NCBI GenBank assembly: GCA_902384685.1
Contig: CABMCU010000108.1
Span: forward strand, 2,344-66,343
DNA from: an uncultured archaeon
Lineage (GTDB): Archaea; Thermoplasmatota; E2; DHVEG-1
Length of the DNA stretch: 64,000 nt
Direction of reading: 5' to 3'
Made by a program: the position numbers and the translations under genes. Under the pieces are notes generated by a model. That model did no database searches, was not told the origin of the DNA, and worked only from the letters and a program-made list of their open reading frames with translations. This document shows, piece after piece, positions 7,470 through 42,833 of this stretch (position 1 is its first letter; every line of letters starts with the position of its first letter).

Positions 7470-8432
7470 ATGACAGACCAATTACTCTCCCTTGAAATAT
7501 TTCTTAAACACACGTATGAAGATATAGAGAAGAAAATAGATGAAACTATTACTGATCAGAATATTTTAGCTATACTAAAGGACGGGAAGCGATTGCGACC
7601 ATTACTTAGTGCGATTTCTTTTAAAACATGTACTGGGGGAGATGAATCATCGCAGCTATACCAACAGTTTTTAGAAGGAGCTGTAGCAATTGAGCTTGCG
7701 CATAGTGCCTCCTTGGTTCATGATGATATCATCGATGGTGATTTAACCAGGAGAGGCGAAGCGGCGTTCTATATTAAGACCGGTATTGATAACGCGATTC
7801 TGGTTGGTCATAAAATGCTGGTGGTTGGATTTAGCATTGCATTGTCTCATGGGGAAAAAATAGCGAAGCTGTATGTAGACGCTTGGGGTGGCACCCTCGA
7901 TGGGCAACTCAATGAAATCAATTTCAACAGTAAAGATCTCCAGGATATCAATTTCACTGCAGATTCAAAGTTCTTCCAGGTTTATAGTCGGATTATAGAT
8001 TTGAAGACAGCTACTTTATTTTCTGCAGCCTGTAAGGCTGCTGCGTATTGGGCAAATTCGTCCGATAAGGTTGCGGATGTCCTCGCAGAGTATGGAAGGG
8101 AAGTGGGATTTGCGTATCAGCTTGCTGATGATTTAGTTGATCTTGAGAAGGGTGAGATGATTGATAGTGTGGTTATCCCCCTCTTGACTCGACTTGAGAA
8201 GCGATCTGCGAAAAACGGTACTCTTAAAACACGATCGATTCGTAAGAAAATTGAGAAGAGATCACCTGAGATTAAAAAACTATATCTTGAGGAAATTTCA
8301 ACCCATGTAAATAAGGCGCGGATGATTTGTCAATCCCCGATTCTTCCGAATAATCAATTTAAGACATTTTTGTTAGATGCACCGTTTTATAGTATTAATA
8401 AAATGCTGGCGGAAATTTACATTAATATATAA
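7470..8432 (+). CDS. trans-Polyprenyl diphosphate synthase (GGPP synthase-like)
   Basis: First aspartate-rich motif LVHDDIIDGDLTRRG and second motif YQLADDLVD. ~320 aa. Confidence 0.75.
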   Translation: MTDQLLSLEIFLKHTYEDIEKKIDETITDQNILAILKDGKRLRPLLSAISFKTCTGGDESSQLYQQFLEGAVAIELAHSASLVHDDIIDGDLTRRGEAAFYIKTGIDNAILVGHKMLVVGFSIALSHGEKIAKLYVDAWGGTLDGQLNEINFNSKDLQDINFTADSKFFQVYSRIIDLKTATLFSAACKAAAYWANSSDKVADVLAEYGREVGFAYQLADDLVDLEKGEMIDSVVIPLLTRLEKRSAKNGTLKTRSIRKKIEKRSPEIKKLYLEEISTHVNKARMICQSPILPNNQFKTFLLDAPFYSINKMLAEIYINI

Positions 8433-10980: not shown

Positions 10981-11379
10981 ATGAAAGATGACCCGATAGC
11001 GCGGGTGCTTGATGATTTGCTTAAGTTTGATGATATTTTAGCGTGTATGGTTGCACGACGGAATATGATTAGTGTTATGCCGTCTGGTGAGGGATTCAAA
11101 CCAGAGGTGAATCAGATCTGGGATAATATTCATCGTGCCATGGATGATGTGTTTGGCGTGATTGGTGCATATTCTCAGATTGGTCTAGGTGAAATGGAGT
11201 TTCGGTTACAGGACTATGAGGTGTTATTTTACGTGTTTCCCGATACCGAGAATGCGTTAGTTGCGATTGTTCCCGCTCTGGCGAATAAGGGATTGCTTGA
11301 GGTGGCAATGGAGAATGCTAGGCGTGAGATTCTTAAGATTATGAACCCTGAAAAAACCGAGAAAGTAATAAATACATAA
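10981..11379 (+). CDS. Roadblock/LC7 domain protein
   Basis: ~130 aa. Pattern ...GV.GA.LV..DG..I.S.....E...LA....M...V..A.... typical of the Roadblock/LC7/MglB fold. Confidence 0.6.
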   Translation: MKDDPIARVLDDLLKFDDILACMVARRNMISVMPSGEGFKPEVNQIWDNIHRAMDDVFGVIGAYSQIGLGEMEFRLQDYEVLFYVFPDTENALVAIVPALANKGLLEVAMENARREILKIMNPEKTEKVINT

Positions 11380-12831: not shown

Positions 12832-13935
12832 TTAGTGTTTATATGCCATAATTTGAGCAGCTGCATTGATAAGTTTTGTATTATCTGAATATACTAGTTT
12901 TGCGATGTCGGTTAATTTATTGATATATTTACCAAGATAATGATCTCTAACTCGTTTCGTATAATTTTCAAATGAAAAATCGTCAGTCTTAAAAGCATCT
13001 AAAATCGTCGTTGCTGCTACTGCACCGTAAGTCAAAGATAGATGGATGCCTCCACCTAAAAATGGTTCGATACCAGCAGCATCCCCTACTAAAAGAATGT
13101 TAGATTTCGAGAGAATTCCTGAGTCTCGGAAATATGGGATTGGATGGCTTCTCCAGGATTTAGGGCTGTACGGAATATTACGAGATAGTAGTTCTTGACA
13201 AAAAAGTTCTTTCAGATTTGCTCGCTTGATATTTGGAAGAATTCTAGAATCACATATACCATGGTTCATAAATGTTTTTCCGTCTTTGAGACAAGGGAAA
13301 TGCCATACATATCCTTGTAAACCTTTATTTATCGCAGTAAAATCTAACACCGCAGAATGATTATCGAATTCCAGATCGAATCGGGGATTGACTGGGGCAA
13401 ATATTTCAATTGTTGGGGCTAGGTTGGGTTTTTTAAGAAGATTCATTTTCCGACGAACTGTACTAAGTGCACCGTCTGCTCCCACTAGGATTTTAGTATA
13501 GTATTGAGTCTTGTTTGTTTTGACCAACAATCCTTTGGAGGTATGAGTTACATCGAGAAATTTTTCATTTTCTTTTATAAGTAATCCTCGTTGCATTGCA
13601 GTATTTGCAAGATAATGATCAAATTCAATTCGTCGTATAACTCTAAAAAAATCTTTTTCTTTGTAAGTATAAACATCTTCACCTAAACGGATTTCCATAT
13701 TATTTATTGATACAAAAGGTATATTCAAATCGATGTGTAAATTATCAAATATTTTTTGTGTCATCCATTTCTGAAGTCCACCGCCACAGAGCTTATCTCT
13801 AGGATATTTTTCTTTCTCGACAAGAATAGTTTTTGAGGCCAACTCTGGAGCATATTTATGAAGATTTAACCACGTGGAAACACCTGCAGGGCCACCTCCA
13901 ACAATCATAATATCGTAATCATTTCGAGGTATCAT
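12832..13935 (-). CDS. Geranylgeranyl reductase family FAD-dependent oxidoreductase
   Basis: DIMIVGGGPAGVS dinucleotide-binding motif followed by the GGR-family hallmark RDKLCGGGL. ~367 aa. Overlaps the upstream gene by 4 nt (ATGA). Confidence 0.75.
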   Translation of the reverse strand: MIPRNDYDIMIVGGGPAGVSTWLNLHKYAPELASKTILVEKEKYPRDKLCGGGLQKWMTQKIFDNLHIDLNIPFVSINNMEIRLGEDVYTYKEKDFFRVIRRIEFDHYLANTAMQRGLLIKENEKFLDVTHTSKGLLVKTNKTQYYTKILVGADGALSTVRRKMNLLKKPNLAPTIEIFAPVNPRFDLEFDNHSAVLDFTAINKGLQGYVWHFPCLKDGKTFMNHGICDSRILPNIKRANLKELFCQELLSRNIPYSPKSWRSHPIPYFRDSGILSKSNILLVGDAAGIEPFLGGGIHLSLTYGAVAATTILDAFKTDDFSFENYTKRVRDHYLGKYINKLTDIAKLVYSDNTKLINAAAQIMAYKH

Positions 13936-14900
13936 GCCTTCTTAACCTTCTGAATTGGTTCCCCAAAATTCGTTAACTCATTTAATGTAAACCTGTATTT
14001 TTCTCCCCATTGCTCTGTTTTCTTTAAATGACTCAGATCAATAGATCCTACATGGTTTTTCCGTTCGTTCTCTATCGCCTGCATAATTACTTCAACGATG
14101 CAGGCAAAAAGTTTACCCGGTGGCATTCCAGGAATCGGGAGATGATGTTCCTTAGGGAAATCGACGTATCCACCGTCAATTCTACAGATATCAGGTCGCT
14201 TATGACACAGATCATACGACATATTTGGCGGTTGAGAGACATCAACTACTATTGCGTTCTTCTTCAAATTTTTAGATGCAAGTAATCCAGTAGGATGACT
14301 TGTAGCAGTAACAATGATATCTGCTTCCTGTGTTTTGAGATCAACCGTAGTCTCATAATCGCCCTTCAGGTAATGTTCAAGTTCAGATAACTTTTCAGCT
14401 CTTCTCCCGATAAGCACTGTGTGGTCGAATTGTGAAACTAGAATTTTTGATAACGCCTCGCCAATTACTCCGTAGGCTCCGACAATAGCAAGAGTTTGTT
14501 CTACTGTTTTCTTATGAGATAGATTTGCTGCTTTCAGAACAGCTTTACAGGTGACCGCTGCCGTGTAACTATCCCCGTGATTAGTAAATCCAGTGTACTC
14601 CTTCTGTTCAACAACCCATTTTCCTCCCTCAGATACAGAGGTAGTAAGGCCTCCGAGTTGAATCAGGTCGACATTGAATTTTTTTTGTAAAAAACATGCA
14701 GCATCAAGAATTTTTTGTCGGACTTTTTCTCGTGGAAGTGTCATCATCTCTTCTGCGGTCAATAAAAGTCCGGTGATATGACCTAGTGTTCCATTGATGT
14801 TCATCTCAGGAGAGATAACCAGATTATTCTGAATCCATGGTTTTGGAAATTCTTTGAGGTTTTCTTTATTAAGAAGATGACCAATGGTTGCAAATTTCAT
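13932..14900 (-). CDS. NAD(P)-dependent reductase resembling cyanobacterial acyl-ACP reductase (AAR family)
   Basis: N-terminus MKFATIGHLLN (AAR: MFGLIGHLTSL), LGGLTTSV (AAR: LGGFTSI), Rossmann motif AIVGAYGVIGEAL (AAR: AVVGATGDIGSAV), IDGGY and LFACIVEVIM (AAR: MFACFAEAML). ~322 aa. Confidence 0.45.
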   Translation of the reverse strand: MKFATIGHLLNKENLKEFPKPWIQNNLVISPEMNINGTLGHITGLLLTAEEMMTLPREKVRQKILDAACFLQKKFNVDLIQLGGLTTSVSEGGKWVVEQKEYTGFTNHGDSYTAAVTCKAVLKAANLSHKKTVEQTLAIVGAYGVIGEALSKILVSQFDHTVLIGRRAEKLSELEHYLKGDYETTVDLKTQEADIIVTATSHPTGLLASKNLKKNAIVVDVSQPPNMSYDLCHKRPDICRIDGGYVDFPKEHHLPIPGMPPGKLFACIVEVIMQAIENERKNHVGSIDLSHLKKTEQWGEKYRFTLNELTNFGEPIQKVKKA

Positions 14901-14980
14901 AACACCTTTCCCTTGTTATATTAAATCTTGTAATTTACTTATATTCCATTAAATTTTTCCTTTGCGAAAAATAGGATACA

Positions 14981-16228
14981 TTAGATGCTAATATTTGAAG
15001 GTTCGACGGTACGAATCGCCAGATATGCTTTTGCTTTCAGTTTCACCTCATCTGGGTTGTACACGATTTTTATATGGGTGATATATCGAGAAATCACCTT
15101 AAACTGTGAAATTCTTTCCGTATTTGGTTCTGTTCCTTTCTCTGAAAACATCACTGTTTTTTCACTCCCAGGGTAAACAAGGAGATCATCACGTTTCGAA
15201 GGGGCAGCAATTTCTTTTTCTACGAGGTAATTAAGGATTTTCTTCCAGTGATGTTCTTGGTGATAATGGTTTGGGAAAAATGAACATTCCACTGCTACAG
15301 TTCGTCCAACCTTTTTGCTAATATCGAAATCTAAGACAATTCGATTGACGTTAAGAGAAATAAGGTCATTAATTAGTGTTGAAAACGTTTCGGTTTTCTC
15401 AGACCAGCCAAGTTCATGAAGATAAGGAATGATTTGTTTAGGGTCACGAAATTGAATGGACATACGGATATCTGAGATTTTTCGGGATAGCATGACACCT
15501 ACGATAAATAATGAAGCATTCTTTGGCATTTTTTGAATGGATACGTTGAGATTTTGTTCTATTTCTTTTAATAAACGCTGTCCCATCAACGACGGTATTG
15601 CGAGTTTAGTAAACCAAGAAAAGTCAGAAGGATCTCCCATAGTGCTATCTTTTATTTTGGCTGGATTGAAAAAGACACTTGGTATAGATACTGATGGGGG
15701 ATTTTCTGGCATATCAAATTCTAACCATGCTCCCAGGATCTTGTCATGTAATACAGAATTTGGTTTTGTCCACAATTGCGTGAAGTTCAGTATACGATTC
15801 CATTCAGGTGTCTGTTTATATGATGCCGGCAGATGGCCATTACTGAGAAAATTCGCTAGGGCATATCGAGCATTATCTCTTCCAGAAATAGCAAGTGCCC
15901 AGTCTGCTTGTGATTCTTCCCCGTTCAAACGGACTTCAAAACCTAAAAAATCTGTTACACCACTTGGAAAATAAGTTGCTATTGTTTGGATTTTTTTGAA
16001 ATTATCAGGAGAAACAAGCATTTTTGATACGAATGGTTCTGCCATGGAAAAATAATCGTTCGGAGTTAATTTTCCTAGGGGAATACTTTTTTCCTCTGCA
16101 TGAGAGATCTGTTGATGAATTTGATTATGAAGTTGATATTCAGGAGAAATCAATTTATTTTCTAGTTCAATTTCTCGTGCCGCTCCGGCGATCTCGAATG
16201 ATGTTAAATGGCTAATGTACTTATTCAA
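14981..16228 (-). CDS. Hypothetical protein, paralogue A (unknown family) of the radical-SAM operon
   Basis: 415 aa. Shares conserved blocks with 16464..17708 (G.TDF.GFE.RLN...QAD.A...S, SVL..K.LG.W.EFD, IIPYL..LGW, SHIKI.Y.P). TTG start with GGAGGG 9 nt upstream. No recognisable catalytic motif. Confidence 0.5.
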   Translation of the reverse strand: MNKYISHLTSFEIAGAAREIELENKLISPEYQLHNQIHQQISHAEEKSIPLGKLTPNDYFSMAEPFVSKMLVSPDNFKKIQTIATYFPSGVTDFLGFEVRLNGEESQADWALAISGRDNARYALANFLSNGHLPASYKQTPEWNRILNFTQLWTKPNSVLHDKILGAWLEFDMPENPPSVSIPSVFFNPAKIKDSTMGDPSDFSWFTKLAIPSLMGQRLLKEIEQNLNVSIQKMPKNASLFIVGVMLSRKISDIRMSIQFRDPKQIIPYLHELGWSEKTETFSTLINDLISLNVNRIVLDFDISKKVGRTVAVECSFFPNHYHQEHHWKKILNYLVEKEIAAPSKRDDLLVYPGSEKTVMFSEKGTEPNTERISQFKVISRYITHIKIVYNPDEVKLKAKAYLAIRTVEPSNISI

Positions 16229-16463
16229 GGGTGTCAGCCCTCCTGTTTGATTTTATAGTAATTGTTCTATAAGGGTGTTTTTCGCATCTGCGTACGCACA
16301 TGGGTATCTCAATGCGATACTTCTGATCAACTTGGATTGGTTGTTTCATCCTCATATTTAGATGATCATCCTACAAAGCTGTGATTGAATCAACAATTAA
16401 GCGGAGAGGTGAAGTAGTCAAACACCGTCATCAGAAGAGTCGTAAGCATTCCATCTGACCTGT

Positions 16464-17708
16464 TTACTGATAGGATGTTTCTGTGTTGGTTTTGGTTTGT
16501 CCAAAGAGTCGTACTCCAGGGTAGACTTTTGCTTCAATAGCATGATTTGGTTTGTAGCAGATTTTAATGTGGCTGATGTATCGGACAAGTGCAGCTGAGA
16601 AATCTTGCTGTTGAATCCGTACTGCTGTCTGATAGGAGGTCAGGTCAAATTCTTGGGTAGCGTCGTCTTGTTCAACACCAAGGAAATCAAGGAGCAGTAT
16701 TTTTTTCTCTGGGATACAAGTGTTTTTCTCAATGAGATAATCGAAGAATGCTTCCCAGCGTGTCTCAAGGTTGTATTGGTCTGGGTGATACGCGCATTCC
16801 AGCCCGATTTTCTGGTCAATACCGTCTTCGGTGATGTTGATGTGAAGGACAATTCGAGAGGCAACACATTCAATTTCTTTTATAAGCGTTGTGAATTCGT
16901 TTTTATTATCTGTCCAACCGAGTGATTTAAGATAGGGAATGATATCTTCTGGGTTTATTTTGGAAATAATTAGGCGTAAGCCATTAGTTGCCCGGGAGAG
17001 CATGGAAGCTACGTGGAGAACTGATGCGCCTTTTGGTAGTTGCTGAAGCGCGTGGAGGAATCGTTTTTCCATTTTTTCAGAGAGCGGCTGTCCGTTGAGT
17101 AAGGGTAATGCAATGTGCGTAAGCCAGGAGCATTTTTGAATATCCTCTAGGGTATCTATACGAAGGGATGGTACTTGGATGAAGATATTGGGAACCGGTG
17201 TTTCGGATGGAATGGTGGTGTCAAACTCAAACCAGAGGCCGAGTACCTTGTTGTATAAAACGGAAGAAGGATCAGCCCATGCGGCTGCTAACTTCCCGAC
17301 ATTCTGCCATTGATTCATGGAGCGAAATTCTTTTGGAAGTGATTCGTTTGTAAAAACCTGGGCCAACGCCTCTCGTTCTCCCCTCTTGGATGATACCGCG
17401 AACAGGTAATCTGCTTGTGCATCAGAGGAGTTCAGACGAGATTCAAATCCAAAGAAACTGGTGATGCCTCCAGTCAAGTGAGATGCAAGTTTCTTCATTT
17501 CTGTAAAGTTCTGAGCAGAGATCAAATCATCTGGGATATTAGATTCAACTGAGGATAAATACTGAACAGCAGTTAAATTTTTCAGAGAAGTTTTTCGAAG
17601 ATGTATTGTTTCAGAAATGAATGCCTTTCTACTTTGAAAGTCGCTTATTTCTCCAAATGGGAATGATTCGAAGTTAGTTTCAAACCCATATTTATATATT
17701 TCATTCAT
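16464..17708 (-). CDS. Hypothetical protein, paralogue B (unknown family) of the radical-SAM operon
   Basis: Paralogue of 14981..16228. Start set at ATG 17708 (MNEIYKYGFE...). Confidence 0.5.
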   Translation of the reverse strand: MNEIYKYGFETNFESFPFGEISDFQSRKAFISETIHLRKTSLKNLTAVQYLSSVESNIPDDLISAQNFTEMKKLASHLTGGITSFFGFESRLNSSDAQADYLFAVSSKRGEREALAQVFTNESLPKEFRSMNQWQNVGKLAAAWADPSSVLYNKVLGLWFEFDTTIPSETPVPNIFIQVPSLRIDTLEDIQKCSWLTHIALPLLNGQPLSEKMEKRFLHALQQLPKGASVLHVASMLSRATNGLRLIISKINPEDIIPYLKSLGWTDNKNEFTTLIKEIECVASRIVLHINITEDGIDQKIGLECAYHPDQYNLETRWEAFFDYLIEKNTCIPEKKILLLDFLGVEQDDATQEFDLTSYQTAVRIQQQDFSAALVRYISHIKICYKPNHAIEAKVYPGVRLFGQTKTNTETSYQ

Positions 17709-17980
17709 TCTTTTCGTTCCCCAATTCAAACAATACACCTGGAAAACATAAAGCCCTCTTCCGAGAAAATCCTACAAAATGCGAAAAATCCGACTTTTTA
17801 TTTACGTTTGCCGGAAATGGGGGAAAAATTGTGTTCATCCCATATGTGATAATGAACGTAATGAAAGATATCTCTAATTTGGAATTACCTGAATATTTTT
17901 TGTCTAATATACCAGTCTCTCGTGGTGACGCTAATCAGAAGATACAATTGTATCTAAACATTAGAAAAAGTCCTCCCTAT

Positions 17981-19894
17981 TCATAAAGGAACATTCACCT
18001 GACATTCCCTCTGTAATACAGGATGTTCACTAACTGAAAATCGCAATGGTAAACATAGGTAATACTCATTATCCACAAATACCAGTCCGTTTTGTTCAAA
18101 GCTTTGTAAGATTGCAATTAATTCAAACTCAGGTATATTCGTAAACCTCTGTTGCAACTGCTGTAACGACACCGCATCCACACATGCAAGAAACACTGTA
18201 CGTTCCAGTTCATTTAACACAAAAATCCGGATGTTCTGCCGATCCCGCTTGTCATAAATCTTAATGAAACTCCCTCCGTCAACAAAATAAAAAATTAACC
18301 TGTCGACGGTGGTTTGCCGTGTAATACCCTCAAGCTCGAATATCTCCCGTTCTTTTTTCCATTCTTCTACTAACGACTCCCATGGATTTTCTATTGATAG
18401 GATTTTTCGTTTGAAATCATACATAAAAGAAAATCCTTTCTCTAAAACCTCTAAGGGGTACATGATTAGATCGATTGGTGTATGCTCCAATCGTTCAATG
18501 TTAAATTGTTCTGGGTGGCTTTGAATCAAGCTCCCATGCATTACTCTGAGTTCGCAGAGTGTAGGAGCATCTAGGTACCCTTTCAACAGGTGAATAATTT
18601 TTTTCGTTTCATCAAAGTCCATTTGCTCTTCATTTGGATATCTCACCATGAGATTATAGTTATTTTTTATCCCGTTTTCTTTACAAAATTTCAGAACTGC
18701 GATATTATCAATTACTCGTACACCCTTGTTCATCTTCCGGAGATAATTCTGGCTGAACGACTCAATTCCTGTTTGAATTGTGATAAACCCAGCCTCTTTC
18801 ATCATCGTATAATCCTTACTAGTTAATTGTCCTGCACGAGCCTCTACAAAAAACGAAAAATCCCTCCCGAGATTTTTTAATTTTTCAAATAAAGTTCGGT
18901 ACTCTGTCTTCGGAAGCGTGTTTCCAATGAGTTGGAAATCCATGATATGGTACCGTTCGGATAGAGACTGGATTTCCTGAATAATCCGATCTACACTTTT
19001 TTCCTGGTAGCATTGATGCTGAATATTGAGATTGCAGAATGTACACTGATTCCACCAGCACCCCCGAGAAATCTCCACCGGAAGTCGCCCGTAATACTGA
19101 TAATACTTCTGAACATCTTCAGATGTTAAAGCAAGTTCCTTATAGAACTGATCGTAAGAAGGAATAGGTACGGTATTGAGATCAACAACCACATCCGACC
19201 TATTCCAGAATATCTCGTCTCTCATCCTGTACATTAATCGAGGAATTGATCGAAAATTCTCATGGTCCGATGCAAGAAGAAACAATGCATGCTCTCCATC
19301 ACCGGAGACGATAAAATCGACATATTCAAATGCTCGCAACACGTTTATTCCAAGCACATCAGCGGTTCTGCTGCCACCAAAAACAATTTTTTTCTCCGGG
19401 GAAAGTTCCTTGATTTTTTTCGCAATAGCTAACGACGGAAGTAACTGTCCGTAATTTAATGTAAATCCGATGATATCATATGATTGCCAGTTGATATGAT
19501 CAAGTATCCACTGGTATAACAGATCAGTACGGTGTACATATTCATCAAATAAAAACTGTGGTAACTTAGAAGTGTGCACGAAATGATTGTTAAAGAACTC
19601 TCGGAACCTGTCCTTGTTATTCCTCCAGTGTTCAGGAAATACATACTTAGAAAATACCATTTGAGCTGTGTATGAATCATTTGGAGGGTAAATCAAAGTA
19701 TGATACTTCTGTAGACCATACAACTCTACTGCTTTAAGATAGAGATGGCGAGATTCTATCGTTATTCCTCTTTCGCGACAATACCCCTCTAACACTGGAA
19801 GCTGAATCGAAGGTATTGTAATACCAGCAAACGGCATAGCTACAAGTAGTACACTTTTTTTCTCGTCGTGCATTGCCCAATCCAAAGCTATCAA
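17981..19894 (-). CDS. B12-binding domain radical SAM enzyme with C-terminal PqqD/RRE-like domain
   Basis: N-terminal cobalamin-binding-like Rossmann region (KKSVLLVAMPF...IVFGGS...DFIVSGDGE). Cys cluster EISRGCWWNQCTFCN (Cx4Cx2C variant). C-terminal ~110 aa (TVDRLIFYFVDGGSFIKIYD...LNELERTVFLACVDAVSLQQLQQRF...LIAILQSFEQNGLV) resembles PqqD/RiPP recognition elements. Confidence 0.65.
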   Translation of the reverse strand: MIALDWAMHDEKKSVLLVAMPFAGITIPSIQLPVLEGYCRERGITIESRHLYLKAVELYGLQKYHTLIYPPNDSYTAQMVFSKYVFPEHWRNNKDRFREFFNNHFVHTSKLPQFLFDEYVHRTDLLYQWILDHINWQSYDIIGFTLNYGQLLPSLAIAKKIKELSPEKKIVFGGSRTADVLGINVLRAFEYVDFIVSGDGEHALFLLASDHENFRSIPRLMYRMRDEIFWNRSDVVVDLNTVPIPSYDQFYKELALTSEDVQKYYQYYGRLPVEISRGCWWNQCTFCNLNIQHQCYQEKSVDRIIQEIQSLSERYHIMDFQLIGNTLPKTEYRTLFEKLKNLGRDFSFFVEARAGQLTSKDYTMMKEAGFITIQTGIESFSQNYLRKMNKGVRVIDNIAVLKFCKENGIKNNYNLMVRYPNEEQMDFDETKKIIHLLKGYLDAPTLCELRVMHGSLIQSHPEQFNIERLEHTPIDLIMYPLEVLEKGFSFMYDFKRKILSIENPWESLVEEWKKEREIFELEGITRQTTVDRLIFYFVDGGSFIKIYDKRDRQNIRIFVLNELERTVFLACVDAVSLQQLQQRFTNIPEFELIAILQSFEQNGLVFVDNEYYLCLPLRFSVSEHPVLQRECQVNVPL

Positions 19895-19989
19895 TCAAAT
19901 ATGGATTTTTATAATTAACTCAGGGCGATTTTTTTTCATTAATAAAAACACTAAAATACTTTAAAGTTATCTTTCCACTTAAAGAAAAC

Positions 19990-20961
19990 ATGGTAACGAT
20001 TGATTTGAAGGATAGAAAAATTCTCTACGAACTCGATTTAGATAGTCGACAATCGAACACTCAAATAGGTAAAAAAGTTGGCCTGAAAAAAGATGTTATC
20101 TCATATAGAATAAAACGAATGCAAGATGAGGGCGTTATAATAAATTTTTGGACAGCTATCAATACATTTAAACTTGGATATCACGTCTATAGAATTTATA
20201 TTAATTTTCAATATGTTAGCTCACAAATTAAAGAAAAGATTATTCAACATTTTATTGACTATAGAAATGTATGGGCTGTTATCTCTCTAAAAGCAGAAAT
20301 TGATTTTGATATTGTCGTGTGGGTTAAAGATATTTACGAATTTTATCAATTCTGGAATACGACACTTGATGAATTTGAGGATTATTTCGCGAAGTACACC
20401 CTTTCTGTATATGTTGAAGCGTTCAACTATAAAAAATCGTATTTACTTCCAGATAAATCCAACCATGGAGAACGTCTATTGTATGGAACGGCTTGTACTG
20501 GAAAACCAGTAGAAATCGATGAAATTGATTATAAACTATTAGATGAAATTGCCATTAACGCTCGAATGCCGCTAATAGACCTTACTGAAAAACTCGGATG
20601 CTCATCGCAAACCGTGAATTACCGGTTAAAGAACTTGATAAAAAACAACGTGGTTAATGCGTTTCGAGTGAATGTCGATTTATCAAAAATAGGGCTTCAA
20701 CATTATAAATTAGAGATCTATTTAAAGGATCACAAGCAGAAAAACGCTATATGGAATTATTTGAAAGAACAACCGTATTGCGATACACTGAATGTCGCTA
20801 TCGGATGGAGCGATTTAGAATTTGAAATAATTGTAGAAAACGTACAAAAATTAGGGCAGATTATGGAAGAAATCGATGCGAAATTTCCTAATACTATTAA
20901 AAAACAAAGTTTTTGGATTTTTGATAAAGTTCATAAAGAACGATGGCTACCTAAATTTTAA
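19990..20961 (+). CDS. Tandem Lrp/AsnC-type transcriptional regulator (two HTH + two RAM-like halves)
   Basis: Two HTH_AsnC-like segments (DLKDRKILYELDLDSRQSNTQIGKKVGLKKDVISYRIKRMQDEGVI and DEIDYKLLDEIAINARMPLIDLTEKLGCSSQTVNYRLKNL). Divergent to the radical-SAM operon. Confidence 0.55.
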   Translation: MVTIDLKDRKILYELDLDSRQSNTQIGKKVGLKKDVISYRIKRMQDEGVIINFWTAINTFKLGYHVYRIYINFQYVSSQIKEKIIQHFIDYRNVWAVISLKAEIDFDIVVWVKDIYEFYQFWNTTLDEFEDYFAKYTLSVYVEAFNYKKSYLLPDKSNHGERLLYGTACTGKPVEIDEIDYKLLDEIAINARMPLIDLTEKLGCSSQTVNYRLKNLIKNNVVNAFRVNVDLSKIGLQHYKLEIYLKDHKQKNAIWNYLKEQPYCDTLNVAIGWSDLEFEIIVENVQKLGQIMEEIDAKFPNTIKKQSFWIFDKVHKERWLPKF

Positions 20962-21288
20962 CTTAATGCTTCCTTTGACTGTATAATTGACTATTTTATA
21001 AAAAAATACATAGATTGTATATCTAAAAAACTACATGATATAAATAAAAAATAATTGTAGCACCAGATCTTATCTTTCGTTAACACCAGGTCATATTTTT
21101 TTATTAATTCACTTTTTTTTTTATAAGGGGCAAATACGTGGGCAAATACTTGATGCTACTGCGCCAGCTATTACTCCAATCACAATTATTTCCATATTTT
21201 CTCTCACCATCCTTTATTGATATTCATTATCATGATATACTTTATCATTAATAGTATATAAACCTTTCATGACAAAATATCAAAATGA

Positions 21289-22819: not shown

Positions 22820-24805
22820 TTACCGCTTCTTTCCAATCTCATCAACTGCTTCTGGGTTTGCTAATGTTGAGGTATCACCGACTTCTTGACCAAGTGCTTT
22901 TGCTCGGATTACTCGTCGCATAATCTTTCCGCTTCTTGTTTTTGGTACATCAGAGACAAACCAAATCTCGTCAGGTCGAGCGAGTTTTCCCATCTCTTTT
23001 GCAACGTGGTCTCGCAGTATTTTTTTCAGGTCCTCAGTTGCTTCTACACCTTTCTTTAAAACAACATAGGATGTGATCGATTCTCCTTTCTCCTCATGAG
23101 GTTTTCCAATTACTGCAGCTTCTGCAACCAGAGGATGACTGACAAGGGCAGATTCGACTTCTGAGTTTCCGATTCGGTGACCGGAAATCTTCAGTACATC
23201 ATCTGCTCGTCCCTGGATCCAGAAGTATCCGTCGCTATCTTGGCGAGTTACATCACCAGCGAGGTAGACACCTTTGTACTTCCCCCAGTAGGTTTCTTTG
23301 TATCGCTCTGGATTTTTATAAATACCTCTTAGCATCCCTGGCCATGGGTGGAGTAACACGAGGTTTCCACCACCATTTAATACTGGTTGGCCTTGCTCGT
23401 TGTAAACGGCGGCAGCCATCCCAGGTAATGCTCTTGTTGCAGAGCCTGGTTTCAACGGGGTAATCGGTAATGGGGAAATGACGAAATGCCCGGTTTCAGT
23501 TTGCCACCAGGTGTCCATGATTTGACAGCGTTCACCACCAATATTTTTATAGTACCAGATCCAAGCTTCCGGATTGATTGGTTCTCCGACCGATCCAAGT
23601 AATCGCAGACTACTAAGGTCGTGTTTCTTCGGCCAGTCCTCACCGTGTCTCATAAACAATCGAACACTGGTCGGTGATGTGTAGAACACACTTACACCGT
23701 ACCGTTCAATGATATCCCACCAACGATCAGGTTGTGGCCAGTCAGGTGCTCCTTCATAGATTACTGAAGTTGCACCAAGGATAAGCGGTGCATAAGCGAT
23801 ATAGGAATGTCCGGTAACCCAGCCGATATCAGCGGCGCACCAGTACACATCTTCGTCTTTAATATCAAAGACCCATTTCAAGGTTTGTGCAATACCAACT
23901 GCGTATCCTGCATGAGCATGGATAATTCCTTTTGGCTTTCCTGTCGTCCCGGAGGTATAGAGGAAATATAACGGGTCGTTTGCGTCAAGTTTCTCTGTCT
24001 CACATTCACGAGACATACCCTTAGTGATTTCATGCCACCAAACGTCTTTACTTTTATTCCAGTTTACTTCATCTCCGGTTCTTTTATAGACAATTACATG
24101 TTTCACACTAGGTGCTTCTTTGACTGCTTCATCAGTCTGATTCTTTAAAGGAACTTTTTTACCACGTCGCCAAAAACTATCACAGGTAATCACTGCTTTT
24201 GCTTCACAGTCGTTCATCCGGTCACGGAATGCAGATGCGCTGAATCCAGAAAATACTACGGAGTGGATCGCACCAATCTTTGCACAAGCAAGCATTGCCA
24301 TCGGTAATTCTGGTATCATGGGAAGATAAATACCAACACGATCGCCTTTCTTAATACCCATTTTTCGTAAAGCGTTAGCAAATTTATTAACTTCAATATA
24401 CAAATCATTATACGTTAATTTTCGTATGTCACCTGGTTCTCCTTCGAAGATGAAAGCAACTTTGTTTTTACGCCAGGTTTTCACATGCTTGTCAATTGCA
24501 TCGTGGACAATGTTATATTTCGCGTCGACAAACCATTTCACCCAGGGTGCTTCCCATTCAATAGTTTTTTTTGGAGGTGTGTACCATTCTACAAGATCTT
24601 TAGAGACTTCTTCCCAAAACCATTCCCAGTTATCAGCTTTTTTGTACAGGTCGTCGATTGTTTTTATGTTATGTTTATCCATCCACTGCTTCACATTCGT
24701 GTTATTCACAAATTCTTTTGTTGGTTTAAAAACCCGTTTTTCGTCCATGAGGACCGATATGTTTTCGTCAGTCATGTTAAAATCTCTCCCAAGTTCTTCA
24801 TCCAA
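22820..24805 (-). CDS. acs: Acetyl-CoA synthetase (AMP-forming)
   Basis: 661 aa. Motifs [20 protein letters not shown], terminal ...RSGKIMRR. A hairpin (AAGCGGATTTACCGCTT) overlaps the stop, followed by a T-tract. Confidence 0.9.
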
Positions 24806-42181: not shown

Positions 42182-42266
42182 AATAATTAGTGCAGGGGAC
42201 GAGATTTGAACTCGCGGAGACCTACGTCATAGTGTCCTAAGCCCTACCCCTTAGACCATGCTCGGG
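42182..42266 (-). tRNA. tRNA-Leu (anticodon UAG), class II with long variable arm, no encoded CCA
   Basis: Minus strand GCAGGCG-TA-CCC-GAGCATGGTCTAAG-GGG-...CTTAGGA...-GCGAG-TTCAAAT-CTCGT-CCCCTGC-A. Anticodon loop CUUAGGA and 3' end match canonical archaeal tRNA-Leu(UAG). One C·C acceptor mismatch (pos 6·67) and one G·A in the anticodon stem. Confidence 0.6.
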
Positions 42267-42344
42267 TACGCCTGCAAATCTCGCTGACGCTAATATCATA
42301 TCGTAATGAAAAATGTTTGTAACGAACACCTAGGACGAAAGGGG

Positions 42345-42702: not shown

Positions 42703-42777
42703 AGCGAGGTGGGGTAGTCAGGAAATCCCGACGGGCCCATAACCCGTAGACCAATGGTTCAAATCCATTCCTCGCTA
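42703..42777 (+). tRNA. Initiator tRNA-Met (anticodon CAU), archaeal type
   Basis: AGCGAGG-TG-GGGT...CCC-G-ACGGG-CCCAUAA-CCCGU-AGACC-AATGG-TTCAAAT-CCATT-CCTCGCT-A. A1:U72 pair and three consecutive G:C in the anticodon stem are initiator hallmarks. Position 33 is C rather than U. Confidence 0.75.
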
Positions 42778-42833
42778 CTCCTATTTTCTGCGTGACACCA
42801 TATTTATAAGATGATTTCTTTTCCTTTCATGTT

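Follow-up and report, generated by a model that had tools for sequence, protein, structure and literature searches.

Two juxtaposed conserved gene units, with predicted PT-barrel prenyltransferases and a B12 radical SAM enzyme, in an uncultured Thermoplasmatota archaeon

In the window, that is, the whole 64,000-nt stretch of DNA analyzed, the five same-direction open reading frames (ORFs) listed in the initial annotation were all found on the minus strand (17981-19894, 16464-17738, 14981-16228, 13932-14900, and 12832-13935). They encode a B12-binding radical SAM enzyme (rSAM), two paralogues (PT1 and PT2), an NAD(P)H reductase, and a geranylgeranyl-reductase (GGR)-family flavoprotein. The gene set proved to be real and conserved and fitted no characterized pathway, as had been stated, and the peptide cues and isoprenoid cues drawn from it were each genuine. 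For synteny, the region was compared among about 40 Thermoplasmatota loci, whose shared ancestry inflates all of the counts given below.

For PT1 (paralogue B; 16464..17708, minus strand), the most likely start is the ATG at 17708, as in database orthologues, which gives 414 aa with an N-terminal extension of 45 residues that is conserved yet disordered. PT2 (paralogue A; 14981..16228, minus strand) has a TTG start preceded by AGGAGGG. The two proteins are 34% identical across 366 residues (E 3e-75), PT2 has every invariant column of the family alignment, and a second copy was observed in about half of the loci. Neither protein matched a Pfam or NCBIfam model at E <= 0.1, the curated Trp_DMAT, PTase_Orf2, and cyanobactin prenyltransferase models included, and the family profile retrieved nothing relevant from all PDB sequences at E <= 10. 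Thus, the initial statement that the paralogues match no family held for Pfam and NCBIfam; however, their superfamily was recognizable, and the predicted structures, with a ten-stranded antiparallel beta-barrel built from five alpha-alpha-beta-beta repeats, showed PT1 and PT2 to be soluble PT-barrel (ABBA-fold) enzymes. In both paralogues, the invariant acidic, basic, and Tyr residues fell on or beside the predicted barrel strands (the invariant set is E89, D100, E161, D163, R239, R245, E304, H380, K382, K394, and Y396). Because no sequence-level link to solved prenyltransferases was found, catalysis by PT1 and PT2 is proposed from the fold and the conserved residues, and as PT-barrel prenyltransferases the paralogues would account for the isoprenoid cue. 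A profile search with the family recovered 3,279 representatives at the 50% identity level, some of them fused to a squalene-hopene-cyclase-like domain or to 2OG oxygenases. Bacterial members occurred in peptide settings: one adjoins an NHLP-type precursor and LanM, relatives also adjoin C39-ABC exporters, and another adjoins a CPBP protease and an S9 peptidase.

The reductase (13932..14900, minus strand) is of the AAR/PigE-N type. In agreement with its initial description as AAR-like, it could be aligned with 6jzu, a cyanobacterial acyl-ACP reductase (E 4e-13), and with the N-domain of PigE (E 1e-25). It also matched TIGR04058 (E 5e-22) at 78.8 bits, below the equivalog cut-off of 449.7; by sequence, it is a relative of the long-chain acyl-ACP reductase and not a member of that family. 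The F-A-C catalytic cysteine and the Rossmann NAD(P)H site are present in the alignment to 6jzu; among the 120 homologues listed, 118 have Cys at the catalytic position, mostly as F-[AS]-C. Wherever a locus includes downstream sequence, the prenyltransferase gene is followed by the reductase gene. No aldehyde-deformylating oxygenase partner was seen among the genes examined. The GGR gene (12832..13935, minus strand), of the prenyl-chain saturase type, overlaps the reductase gene by 4 nt (reductase stop and GGR start, 13932-13935), as previously noted. Its product carries the GxGxxG (FAD-binding) and LCGGG motifs and has TIGR02032 as its best family match (136.4 bits, below the cut-off of 158.8); against the DGGGPL-reductase (lipid saturase) equivalogs it scored only 56.8 versus 580 and 51.7 versus 780. 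About 12 of 32 loci carry GGR genes after the reductase gene, and the copy number ranges from zero to two or more. These scores, together with its optional presence and varying copy number, indicated an accessory tailoring paralogue rather than the housekeeping membrane-lipid saturase, in line with the initial reading.

The rSAM gene (17981..19873, minus strand) encodes 630 aa when read from its most likely start, the ATG at 19873, which agrees with database orthologues. Both an N-terminal cobalamin-binding domain and a radical SAM core are present, and the protein matched TIGR03975, 'RiPP maturation radical SAM C-methyltransferase', over model positions 1-606 of 606 (361.7 bits; cut-off 281.85); we take this family to be of the proteusin PoyB/PoyC type. 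The Cx4Cx2C cluster reported initially was confirmed as RGCWWNQCTFC, with its three Cys invariant in 35 orthologues, and the enzyme is conserved at the housekeeping level (61-92%). The putative RRE-like tail was supported by predicted topology (beta-beta-beta-alpha-alpha-alpha, residues 528-606 of the model) but not by sequence, as no PqqD/RRE sequence or profile match was found. Divergent from this gene lies the tandem Lrp/AsnC-type regulator (19990..20961, plus strand), whose two wHTH domains were confirmed by Pfam HTH_AsnC-type and HTH_24 matches in two stretches each; in 12 loci, its orthologues (49-77% identity) are neighbours of either the rSAM gene or the prenyltransferase operon. Outside the region covered by the initial annotation, a small gene of 24 codons was observed at 21121..21195 on the minus strand (ORF open from 21210); it encodes the hydrophobic peptide MEIIVIGVIAGAVASSICPRICPL and is preceded by a conserved GGTGA Shine-Dalgarno sequence and a TATATCATG box. 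Each of the 10 loci with both rSAM and upstream sequence contained a homologous ORF of 23-31 aa, and in a rearranged locus (L031) it lies immediately upstream of rSAM. Its N-terminal part is conserved and its C-terminal tail hypervariable, and its third-codon positions vary synonymously, a coding-type variation. It is thus a candidate substrate or partner of rSAM, although so hydrophobic a small peptide could simply be a tiny membrane protein.

Between the rSAM and prenyltransferase genes, we found a T5 run and a conserved 68-nt element, P1. The T5 run (17965..17969, minus strand), read from the sequence 12 nt past the rSAM stop codon, is likely an archaeal transcription stop. P1 (17745..17811, minus strand) has the character of an operator plus promoter: its 5' half contains an imperfect palindrome, CAAAnGTAAAnAAAA ... 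TTTTTGGAATTTTG, followed by GGGCTTTATGT, and the prenyltransferase ATG lies 36-38 nt further on. By nhmmer, each locus had a single strong match to it (E 1e-12 to 5e-19), invariably a short way 5' of the first prenyltransferase gene, and it was conserved in about 30 loci. The 44-codon ORF for which a precursor role had been suggested does exist (17701-17838), but its sequence is that of P1, which is conserved over 68 nt at the nucleotide level and is read in three different frames depending on the locus; the precursor role was therefore rejected, and the gene at 21121-21195 appears to be the better rSAM precursor candidate. A second conserved element, P2 (16262..16298, minus strand), precedes PT2. 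From their geometry, we infer promoter roles for P1 and P2 and a terminator role for the T5 run; both promoters sit within what had been described as a single five-gene unit.

The comparison of loci did not support one operon of five genes. The five genes were not found to stay together as a unit among the compared loci, in which only the prenyltransferase and reductase were invariant; in other genomes, rSAM parts from this core. In four loci (L003, L009, L014, and L041), rSAM lies 5-7 kb off, beyond AttH, NosD, Tes, and an HTH gene; in L008, L016, L018, L029, and L034, the 8-10 kb preceding the prenyltransferase revealed no rSAM; and L042 has rSAM and the peptide, with prenyltransferase and reductase absent. 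What had been taken for one operon proved to be two units side by side. Unit 1 (17811 down to 12832, minus strand) comprises P1, PT1, P2, PT2, the reductase, and GGR, and Unit 2 (21195 down to 17981) comprises the 24-aa peptide gene, the tandem Lrp regulator, and the TIGR03975 B12 rSAM. Across loci, Unit 1 consists of the conserved operator/promoter, one or two prenyltransferases, the reductase (always), and zero to two or more GGR genes. Uncultured Thermoplasmatota of anoxic sediments have conserved it in at least 35 species-level genomes. The unit holds no gene for making an aromatic acceptor or for activating an acid to a thioester.

We therefore proposed that two conserved units, one of prenyltransferase, reductase, and GGR and the other of peptide, Lrp regulator, and B12 rSAM, were probably brought together in this genome, where the AttH-NosD-Tes-HTH block that separates them in close relatives would have been deleted. 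In Unit 1, PT1 and PT2 would use a prenyl diphosphate as donor and attach its isoprenoid chain to a nucleophilic acceptor, probably an aromatic or a thiol. The reductase, judged by its catalytic Cys and Rossmann blocks, would turn an acyl group on the acceptor or product, activated as a thioester or in some other way, into an aldehyde, and GGR, where present, would be expected from its family to saturate double bonds in the transferred isoprenoid chain. The pathway would end in a prenyl conjugate, partly or fully saturated and associated with the membrane. We tentatively suggest that the acceptor is lipid-like or a small molecule; that it is a peptide or protein is more doubtful. In Unit 2, the beta3-alpha3 C-terminal domain of rSAM would bind the conserved N-terminal part of the peptide, which rSAM would C-methylate. 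The two units adjoin each other in this lineage, and their regulation may be shared, but they are not one obligatory pathway.

An alternative is a single hybrid RiPP lipopeptide pathway, in which a ribosomal peptide is C-methylated by rSAM and prenylated by PT1 and PT2, its chain saturated by GGR, and the reductase adds further tailoring; the substrate would be the 24-aa hydrophobic peptide or some peptide yet to be found. Besides the score of rSAM above the RiPP-maturase family cut-off and the RiPP clusters around bacterial relatives of the prenyltransferase, this reading is favored by Cys, Trp, or Tyr in most small-peptide tails and by 15 loci in which rSAM precedes the prenyltransferase on the same strand by no more than 10 kb, a recurrence that makes a functional link possible. 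However, the peptide tail of L041, GVLPLQGVLPKLF, lacks a usual prenyl acceptor, yet both prenyltransferases are there; L042 has a near-identical peptide and rSAM without prenyltransferase or reductase; and several loci with the prenyltransferase-reductase pair have no rSAM within 8-10 kb. We also know of no AAR-type reductase or GGR in any RiPP pathway, which counts against this model, and we consider it unlikely.

A further alternative concerns P2, a conserved TGC-RTA-N6-TGCGAAAAA-N3-4-CTTTATAG motif found in 22 loci. It lies inside another 44-codon ORF (16221-16355) that reads C-x3-C-E-K-x-L-Y, and this motif could mark a real small peptide, separate or prenyltransferase-fused depending on the genome, acting as a tethered substrate (compare the enzyme-fused precursors of borosins) or as a metal-binding prenyltransferase subunit. 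In its favor, the motif lies beside or within the prenyltransferase ORF in the 22 loci, being in frame with the prenyltransferase via a variable linker in 7 single-prenyltransferase loci and in a separate overlapping ORF in 4 other single-prenyltransferase loci and all two-prenyltransferase loci. Nevertheless, the Cys, Glu, and Lys codons showed essentially no synonymous variation (TGC in 46 of 46, GAA in 22 of 23, and AAA in 22 of 23), whereas neighbouring genes favor TGT (17 versus 8 TGC) and true prenyltransferase motifs vary synonymously; this invariance indicated a constraint at the nucleotide level. Moreover, the motif resembles a BRE/TATA box at promoter distance from the PT2 start, a distance that matches that of another promoter in the window, and L006 has a stop codon immediately after CEK. 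Thus, P2 most likely serves PT2 as an internal BRE/TATA promoter, and a peptide is improbable.

The weakest alternative, pure membrane-lipid tailoring, would have rSAM methylate an ether lipid and the prenyltransferase, reductase, and GGR modify Tes-made isoprenoid lipids, the small ORF being a mere membrane protein. This option, raised in the initial annotation, gained context from the tetraether synthase Tes in the orthologous locus of close relatives (adjoining Unit 1 in 7 loci; in L041, NF045702 at 500.8 bits versus the cut-off of 450), from tandem GGR paralogues, from the variant operon of L042, in which P1 precedes two DDxxD-motif membrane proteins and two GGR paralogues, from a polyprenyl synthase at 7470-8432, 4.4 kb away, and from the precedent of B12 rSAM lipid methylases clustered with lipid genes, such as Hgm acting on H-GDGTs (bioRxiv 10.1101/2023.10.20.563219). 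It appears quite improbable, as rSAM passes the peptide-maturase cut-off while scoring 57 bits against 360 for the lipid B12-rSAM model TIGR04072, has a predicted RRE-like domain and a strictly co-located small peptide gene, and as PT-barrel enzymes are known with aromatic or peptide acceptors only (PMC3227686).

The reading as two juxtaposed units provides a fold and a likely chemistry for a family of more than 3,000 representatives (50% identity) without a Pfam or NCBIfam model. Its boldest form, which we regard as a long shot, is the first archaeal PT-barrel prenyltransferase conjugate system, tied to Tes, beside the first archaeal proteusin-like C-methylated RiPP. Unit 1 would then yield a conjugate with a saturated isoprenoid, which could be a lipidated peptide or protein or else belong to a new class of membrane lipids or quinone-like compounds, and Unit 2 a membrane-type peptide of 23-31 aa C-methylated by the B12 rSAM. 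To our knowledge, the PT-barrel fold has not previously been described in archaea. In a 2011 survey, both PT-barrel families came solely from bacteria and fungi (PMC3227686); thus, archaeal members would extend the superfamily to Archaea. The lipids of these Thermoplasmatota serve as environmental biomarkers though their producers are uncultured, and Unit 1, adjoining Tes and prenyl reductases, offers a lead that can be tested for sediment lipids or lipopeptides still unassigned. The B12 rSAM and the 24-aa peptide are a defined, directly testable candidate pair for archaeal peptide C-methylation.

Compared with the known ABBA types, namely DMATS (MpnD, CymD, FgaPT2), NphB/CloQ, and cyanobactin F (PatF, PagF), PT1 and PT2 show about 10% identity and differ in their archaeal host, 45-residue N-terminal extension, and obligate AAR-type reductase partner. 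NctPC is described as a fusion of a barrel-fold prenyltransferase and a class II cyclase that geranylgeranylates Trp in a RiPP and has low similarity to cyanobactin prenyltransferases (PMC13290415). Prenyltransferase-cyclase fusions that fit this description occur in the family of PT1 and PT2 in NHLP/LanM clusters, and by this analogy of architecture the NctPC/MppC-type RiPP prenyltransferases may belong to the same sequence family; in contrast to those systems, the archaeal loci are without NHLP/Nif11 precursor, LanM, or exporter. The reductase shares fold blocks, the Rossmann motif, and the F-A-C cysteine with cyanobacterial AAR and the PigE N-domain, implying NAD(P)H-dependent conversion of a thioester to an aldehyde via an acyl-enzyme intermediate, but unlike AAR it is partnered with a prenyltransferase. 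GxGxxG and LCGGG are common to GGR and to archaeal DGGGPL reductase, MenJ, and ChlP. Finally, rSAM, with TsrM and MgmA as structural neighbours, resembles TIGR03975 enzymes in its full-length match, its B12 and radical SAM architecture, and its adjoining small peptide gene; it differs in its archaeal host, in having Cx4Cx2C instead of the CX3CX2C typical of radical SAM enzymes, and in a candidate precursor that is only 23-31 aa long, very hydrophobic, and neither NHLP nor Nif11.

All five minus-strand open reading frames (ORFs) of the initial annotation were recovered, at 17981-19894 (a B12 radical SAM enzyme, rSAM), 16464-17738 and 14981-16228 (the paralogous proteins PT1 and PT2), 13932-14900 (a reductase), and 12832-13935 (a geranylgeranyl-reductase-family flavoprotein, GGR). 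The 4-nt overlap between the reductase and GGR genes was also confirmed, and the divergent plus-strand regulator (19990-20961) does carry the two AsnC-type HTH domains of a tandem Lrp protein. The cluster motif Cx4Cx2C of the rSAM reads RGCWWNQCTFC, as had been noted, and was invariant in 35 orthologues. The protein belongs to TIGR03975 ("RiPP maturation radical SAM C-methyltransferase"), which it matched over its full length at 361.7 bits (cut-off, 281.85), and no RRE was found in it at the sequence level. The proposed likeness of the reductase to AAR held as well: its alignment with a solved AAR structure included the conserved catalytic cysteine (F-A-C), and its matches to the PigE N-terminal domain (E 1e-25) and to acyl-ACP reductase (E 5e-22) were both far under the equivalog cut-offs. 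The GGR assignment was borne out by a superfamily match just under the cut-off (136.4 vs. 158.8); on the membrane-lipid saturase equivalogs the protein scored only 52-57 bits (cut-offs, 580-780). In the operon region, Rfam and tRNA scans gave no match, and in the whole window no Rfam family was found besides tRNA-Leu(TAG) (42190-42275, minus strand) and tRNA-Met(CAT) (42703-42778, plus strand). Taken together, the observations made on the sequence were sustained, and the interpretation was supported in part: the five-gene operon and its 44-aa precursor peptide did not stand.

The middle two proteins are indeed paralogues (34% identity over 366 residues, E 3e-75), and Pfam and NCBIfam models matched neither. 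We addressed their nature with an alignment of 55 homologues and an AlphaFold model of PT1 (pLDDT 79.7, pTM 0.81), in which ten strands alternate with helix pairs. The values listed for this model against known enzymes were 13.3 for an NphB-type enzyme, 12.0 for PatF, 11.5 for PagF, and 10.2 for DciF, at approximately 10% sequence identity; the predicted structures thus show a PT-barrel (prenyltransferase) fold for PT1 and PT2. A profile search of all PDB sequences linked no solved prenyltransferase to this family; given this result and the low identity, the kinship with solved prenyltransferases is at the fold level only. The acidic, basic, His, and Tyr residues that are invariant map to predicted strands or their immediate neighbourhood in both paralogues, a placement that fits an active barrel.

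A profile search of a database of 1.84 billion representatives returned 3,279 relatives of the PT1/PT2 family, of which 842 reached E <= 1e-30. The majority have a length of about 370 aa, without the archaeal 45-residue N-terminal extension, and some carry a fused domain of the 2OG-Fe(II) oxygenase, sulfotransferase, or squalene-hopene-cyclase-like type. Five bacterial contexts were examined, two of which were uninformative. In the other three, one relative adjoins C39-peptidase ABC exporters; another, a prenyltransferase-cyclase fusion, lies among an NHLP-type precursor, two PhyH hydroxylases, and a LanM; and the third adjoins a CPBP/Rce1-like protease, an aldo-keto reductase, and an S9 peptidase.

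The window proteins were mapped onto approximately 40 orthologous loci (35 from GTDB and several from metagenomes), all of them from Thermoplasmatota metagenome-assembled genomes. The reductase directly follows the prenyltransferase in every locus with downstream sequence, forming the core; a second prenyltransferase is present in about half of the loci, and GGR in about 12 of 32, in zero to two or more copies. In 15 loci the rSAM lies upstream of the prenyltransferase on the same strand. The distance between them reaches 5-7 kb in L003, L009, L014, and L041, and no rSAM was seen within 8-10 kb upstream of the prenyltransferase and reductase in L008, L016, L018, L029, and L034. Conversely, L042 retains the regulator and rSAM together with AttH, NosD, Tes, and HTH genes and has neither prenyltransferase nor reductase. 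The five genes had been taken for a single operon; with the rSAM separable and GGR optional, they instead fall into two conserved units, each with its own cis elements or small gene: the prenyltransferases, reductase, and GGR on one side, and a 24-aa peptide gene, the tandem Lrp gene, and the rSAM on the other.

The block between the rSAM and the prenyltransferase comprises AttH-like and NosD-like genes, an opposite-strand radical SAM gene, and the gene of a 227-aa HTH regulator. The intervening radical SAM protein is the tetraether lipid synthase Tes (NF045702, 500.8 bits vs. a cut-off of 450; L041:14723-16240, minus strand; also in L003, L004, L009, L012, L013, L014, and L042), which in these loci carries the Pfam label "Zn_ribbon_HMPTM"; in relatives, Tes and the HTH regulator lie directly upstream of the prenyltransferase operon. 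The block is entirely absent from the window but present in L004, the closest GTDB relative (PT1 89% identical); therefore, the adjacency of rSAM and prenyltransferase genes in the window is a deletion product. In one relative, L041, an inserted AbiEii/AbiEi toxin-antitoxin pair (L041:17297-18603) separates the HTH regulator from the prenyltransferase operon, which shows that this site is a hotspot for insertions and deletions. In other loci, two dissimilar small proteins are encoded in the stretch separating the tandem Lrp gene from the next operon: a Cys-rich 131-aa protein with CxxC...CxxC (L001:2618-3013) and a 135-aa protein with an N-terminal membrane segment (L042:9501-9908).

The region is flanked by housekeeping genes: those for acetate-CoA ligase and fumarase at one end, and those for a FIST protein, a 132-aa protein, GcvH, GcvT, fibrillarin, and a polyprenyl synthase at the opposite end. 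The 132-aa protein (10981-11379, plus strand) matches no family, is 58-91% identical across most loci, and is always encoded between the FIST gene and GcvH; in L008 and L029, the prenyltransferase operon is closely preceded by the gene of a paralogue with 42-43% identity.

A 44-codon ORF upstream of PT1 (17701-17838) had been suggested as a possible precursor peptide. It coincides with a 68-nt element (P1; 17745-17811, minus strand) conserved in about 30 loci, each of which has a single copy, invariably placed 36-38 nt ahead of the start codon of the first prenyltransferase gene. Because the loci read P1 in three frames, the conserved DNA is not coding, and with the fixed distance to the start codon this rules out the precursor. 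The consensus is CAAAnGTAAAnAAAA-N7-GTTTTTGGAATTTTGTAGGATTTTCTnGGAnnnGGGCTTTATGT; its 5' half is an imperfect palindrome that also gives a reverse-strand match, and its 3' end resembles a TATA box and is spaced from the Shine-Dalgarno sequence and start codon as a promoter would be. We therefore read P1 as a putative operator plus promoter. In L042, P1 precedes a different operon (L042:17538-21274), which it would drive on the same reading: two membrane proteins followed by two GGR-family genes. These membrane proteins (about 190 aa) are paralogous, 65% identical, share a YIDDAFDE motif, and have no Pfam or NCBIfam match.

The spacer between PT1 and PT2 holds a second element (P2; 16262-16298, minus strand), found in 22 loci and reading C-x3-C-E-K-x-L-Y inside another 44-codon ORF (16221-16355, minus strand). 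Where a genome has a single prenyltransferase, P2 falls within the enzyme's N-terminal ORF: seven loci (L016, L018, L021, L022, L026, L031, and L033) have it in frame via a variable linker, and in four it forms a separate overlapping ORF. Its codons hardly vary (Cys is TGC in 46 of 46 cases, GAA and AAA each occur in 22 of 23); window genes nearby use TGT 17 times vs. TGC 8 times, and in the same check, synonymous codons were mixed in the usual way at prenyltransferase motifs that are truly conserved. The PT2 start follows the underlying GCGAAAAA-N3-4-CTTTATAG at a distance of 37-40 nt, a geometry shared with another promoter in the window. Because the codons are invariant at the nucleotide level and the geometry is promoter-like, P2 is read as a probable internal promoter; lacking synonymous variation and showing BRE/TATA geometry, the ORF was downgraded as a precursor or tethered substrate. 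In the in-frame loci, the element might both encode protein and act in regulation, or P1 and P2 might give rise to alternative N-terminal isoforms.

Identity among the rSAM orthologues is 61-92%, which exceeds that of the prenyltransferases (45-60%) and is similar to that of the reductase (63-93%). Just past the 3' end of the Lrp gene, on the rSAM strand, lies a small ORF (21121-21210, minus strand) whose likely product, from 21121-21195, is the 24-aa peptide MEIIVIGVIAGAVASSICPRICPL, the start being set by a conserved GGTGA Shine-Dalgarno sequence. Homologues of 23-31 aa were found in all ten loci that hold the rSAM with upstream sequence (the window, L014, L020, L022, L027, L028, L031, L035, L041, and L042), and in the rearranged L031 the ORF is directly upstream of the rSAM gene. 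Third-codon positions vary synonymously, which marks the ORF as a real gene. The N-terminal part is conserved (M-D/E-x-I-V/I-..G.., rich in A, V, G, and I), and the tails are hypervariable (ICPRICPL, YEIVCCL, FYMSSCL, SAWMMAAGL, GYMPGYMPLGVMPK, GVLPLQGVLPKLF, and FSWLWLRSSL). Conservation of the recognition part and variability of the core are typical of RiPP precursors, and the rSAM would C-methylate this small peptide. Alternatively, the peptide could be a tiny membrane protein, and the rSAM might by analogy be a lipid methylase like Hgm, for which there is genuine precedent in B12 radical SAM methylases that act on lipids and are encoded in clusters with lipid genes (bioRxiv 10.1101/2023.10.20.563219). 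Directly after the rSAM stop codon, an 8-codon ORF, MFRYNCIF (17935-17961, minus strand), overlaps a T5 run and has a strong Shine-Dalgarno sequence, AGGGAGGA, just upstream; it may be due to chance.

For the other unit, we propose that PT1 and PT2 would transfer a prenyl chain onto a nucleophilic acceptor, that the reductase would reduce a thioester carried by the acceptor or product to an aldehyde, and that GGR would saturate the prenyl chain. A lipid-like or small-molecule acceptor is quite possible, and several features point to it: the thioester reductase is obligate, Tes and GGR are neighbours, the replacement operon of L042 carries GGR-family genes, and conservation is vertical and lineage-wide amid housekeeping genes. 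Pairs of a reductase and a prenyltransferase are common in meroterpenoid pathways. A peptide or protein acceptor, suggested by the bacterial relatives that sit in RiPP clusters, is somewhat less probable. The 24-aa peptide itself is an unlikely acceptor, as its L041 tail lacks a usual acceptor residue and the L042 peptide persists without prenyltransferases. Acetyl-CoA synthetase (22820-24805) was ruled out as thioester supplier: as an acetate-CoA ligase equivalog with 94% identity among relatives, it is a housekeeping enzyme. A polyprenyl diphosphate synthase (7470-8432, plus strand) lies 4.4 kb from the GGR gene and adjoins fibrillarin; its best NCBIfam matches are short-chain, GGPP, and hexaprenyl synthases, all under cut-off, and it is possibly the donor supplier or simply housekeeping.

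In the literature, we found no description of a prenyltransferase combined with an AAR-type reductase and a GGR, no PT-barrel (ABBA) enzyme in Archaea, and nothing relevant on an archaeal AAR homologue or on TIGR03975. The individual parts resemble ABBA prenyltransferases, AAR/PigE-N reductases, GGRs, and TIGR03975 methylases, and three of the four miss the curated family cut-offs. The primary description of a further enzyme, NctPC, is reportedly that of Hubrich et al. 2024. According to a 2026 review, NctPC is a barrel-fold prenyltransferase with low similarity to cyanobactin enzymes and a class II cyclase fusion, and it geranylgeranylates a RiPP tryptophan (PMC13290415). The prenyltransferase-cyclase fusions of the PT1/PT2 family agree with this published description, the likeness being one of description only.
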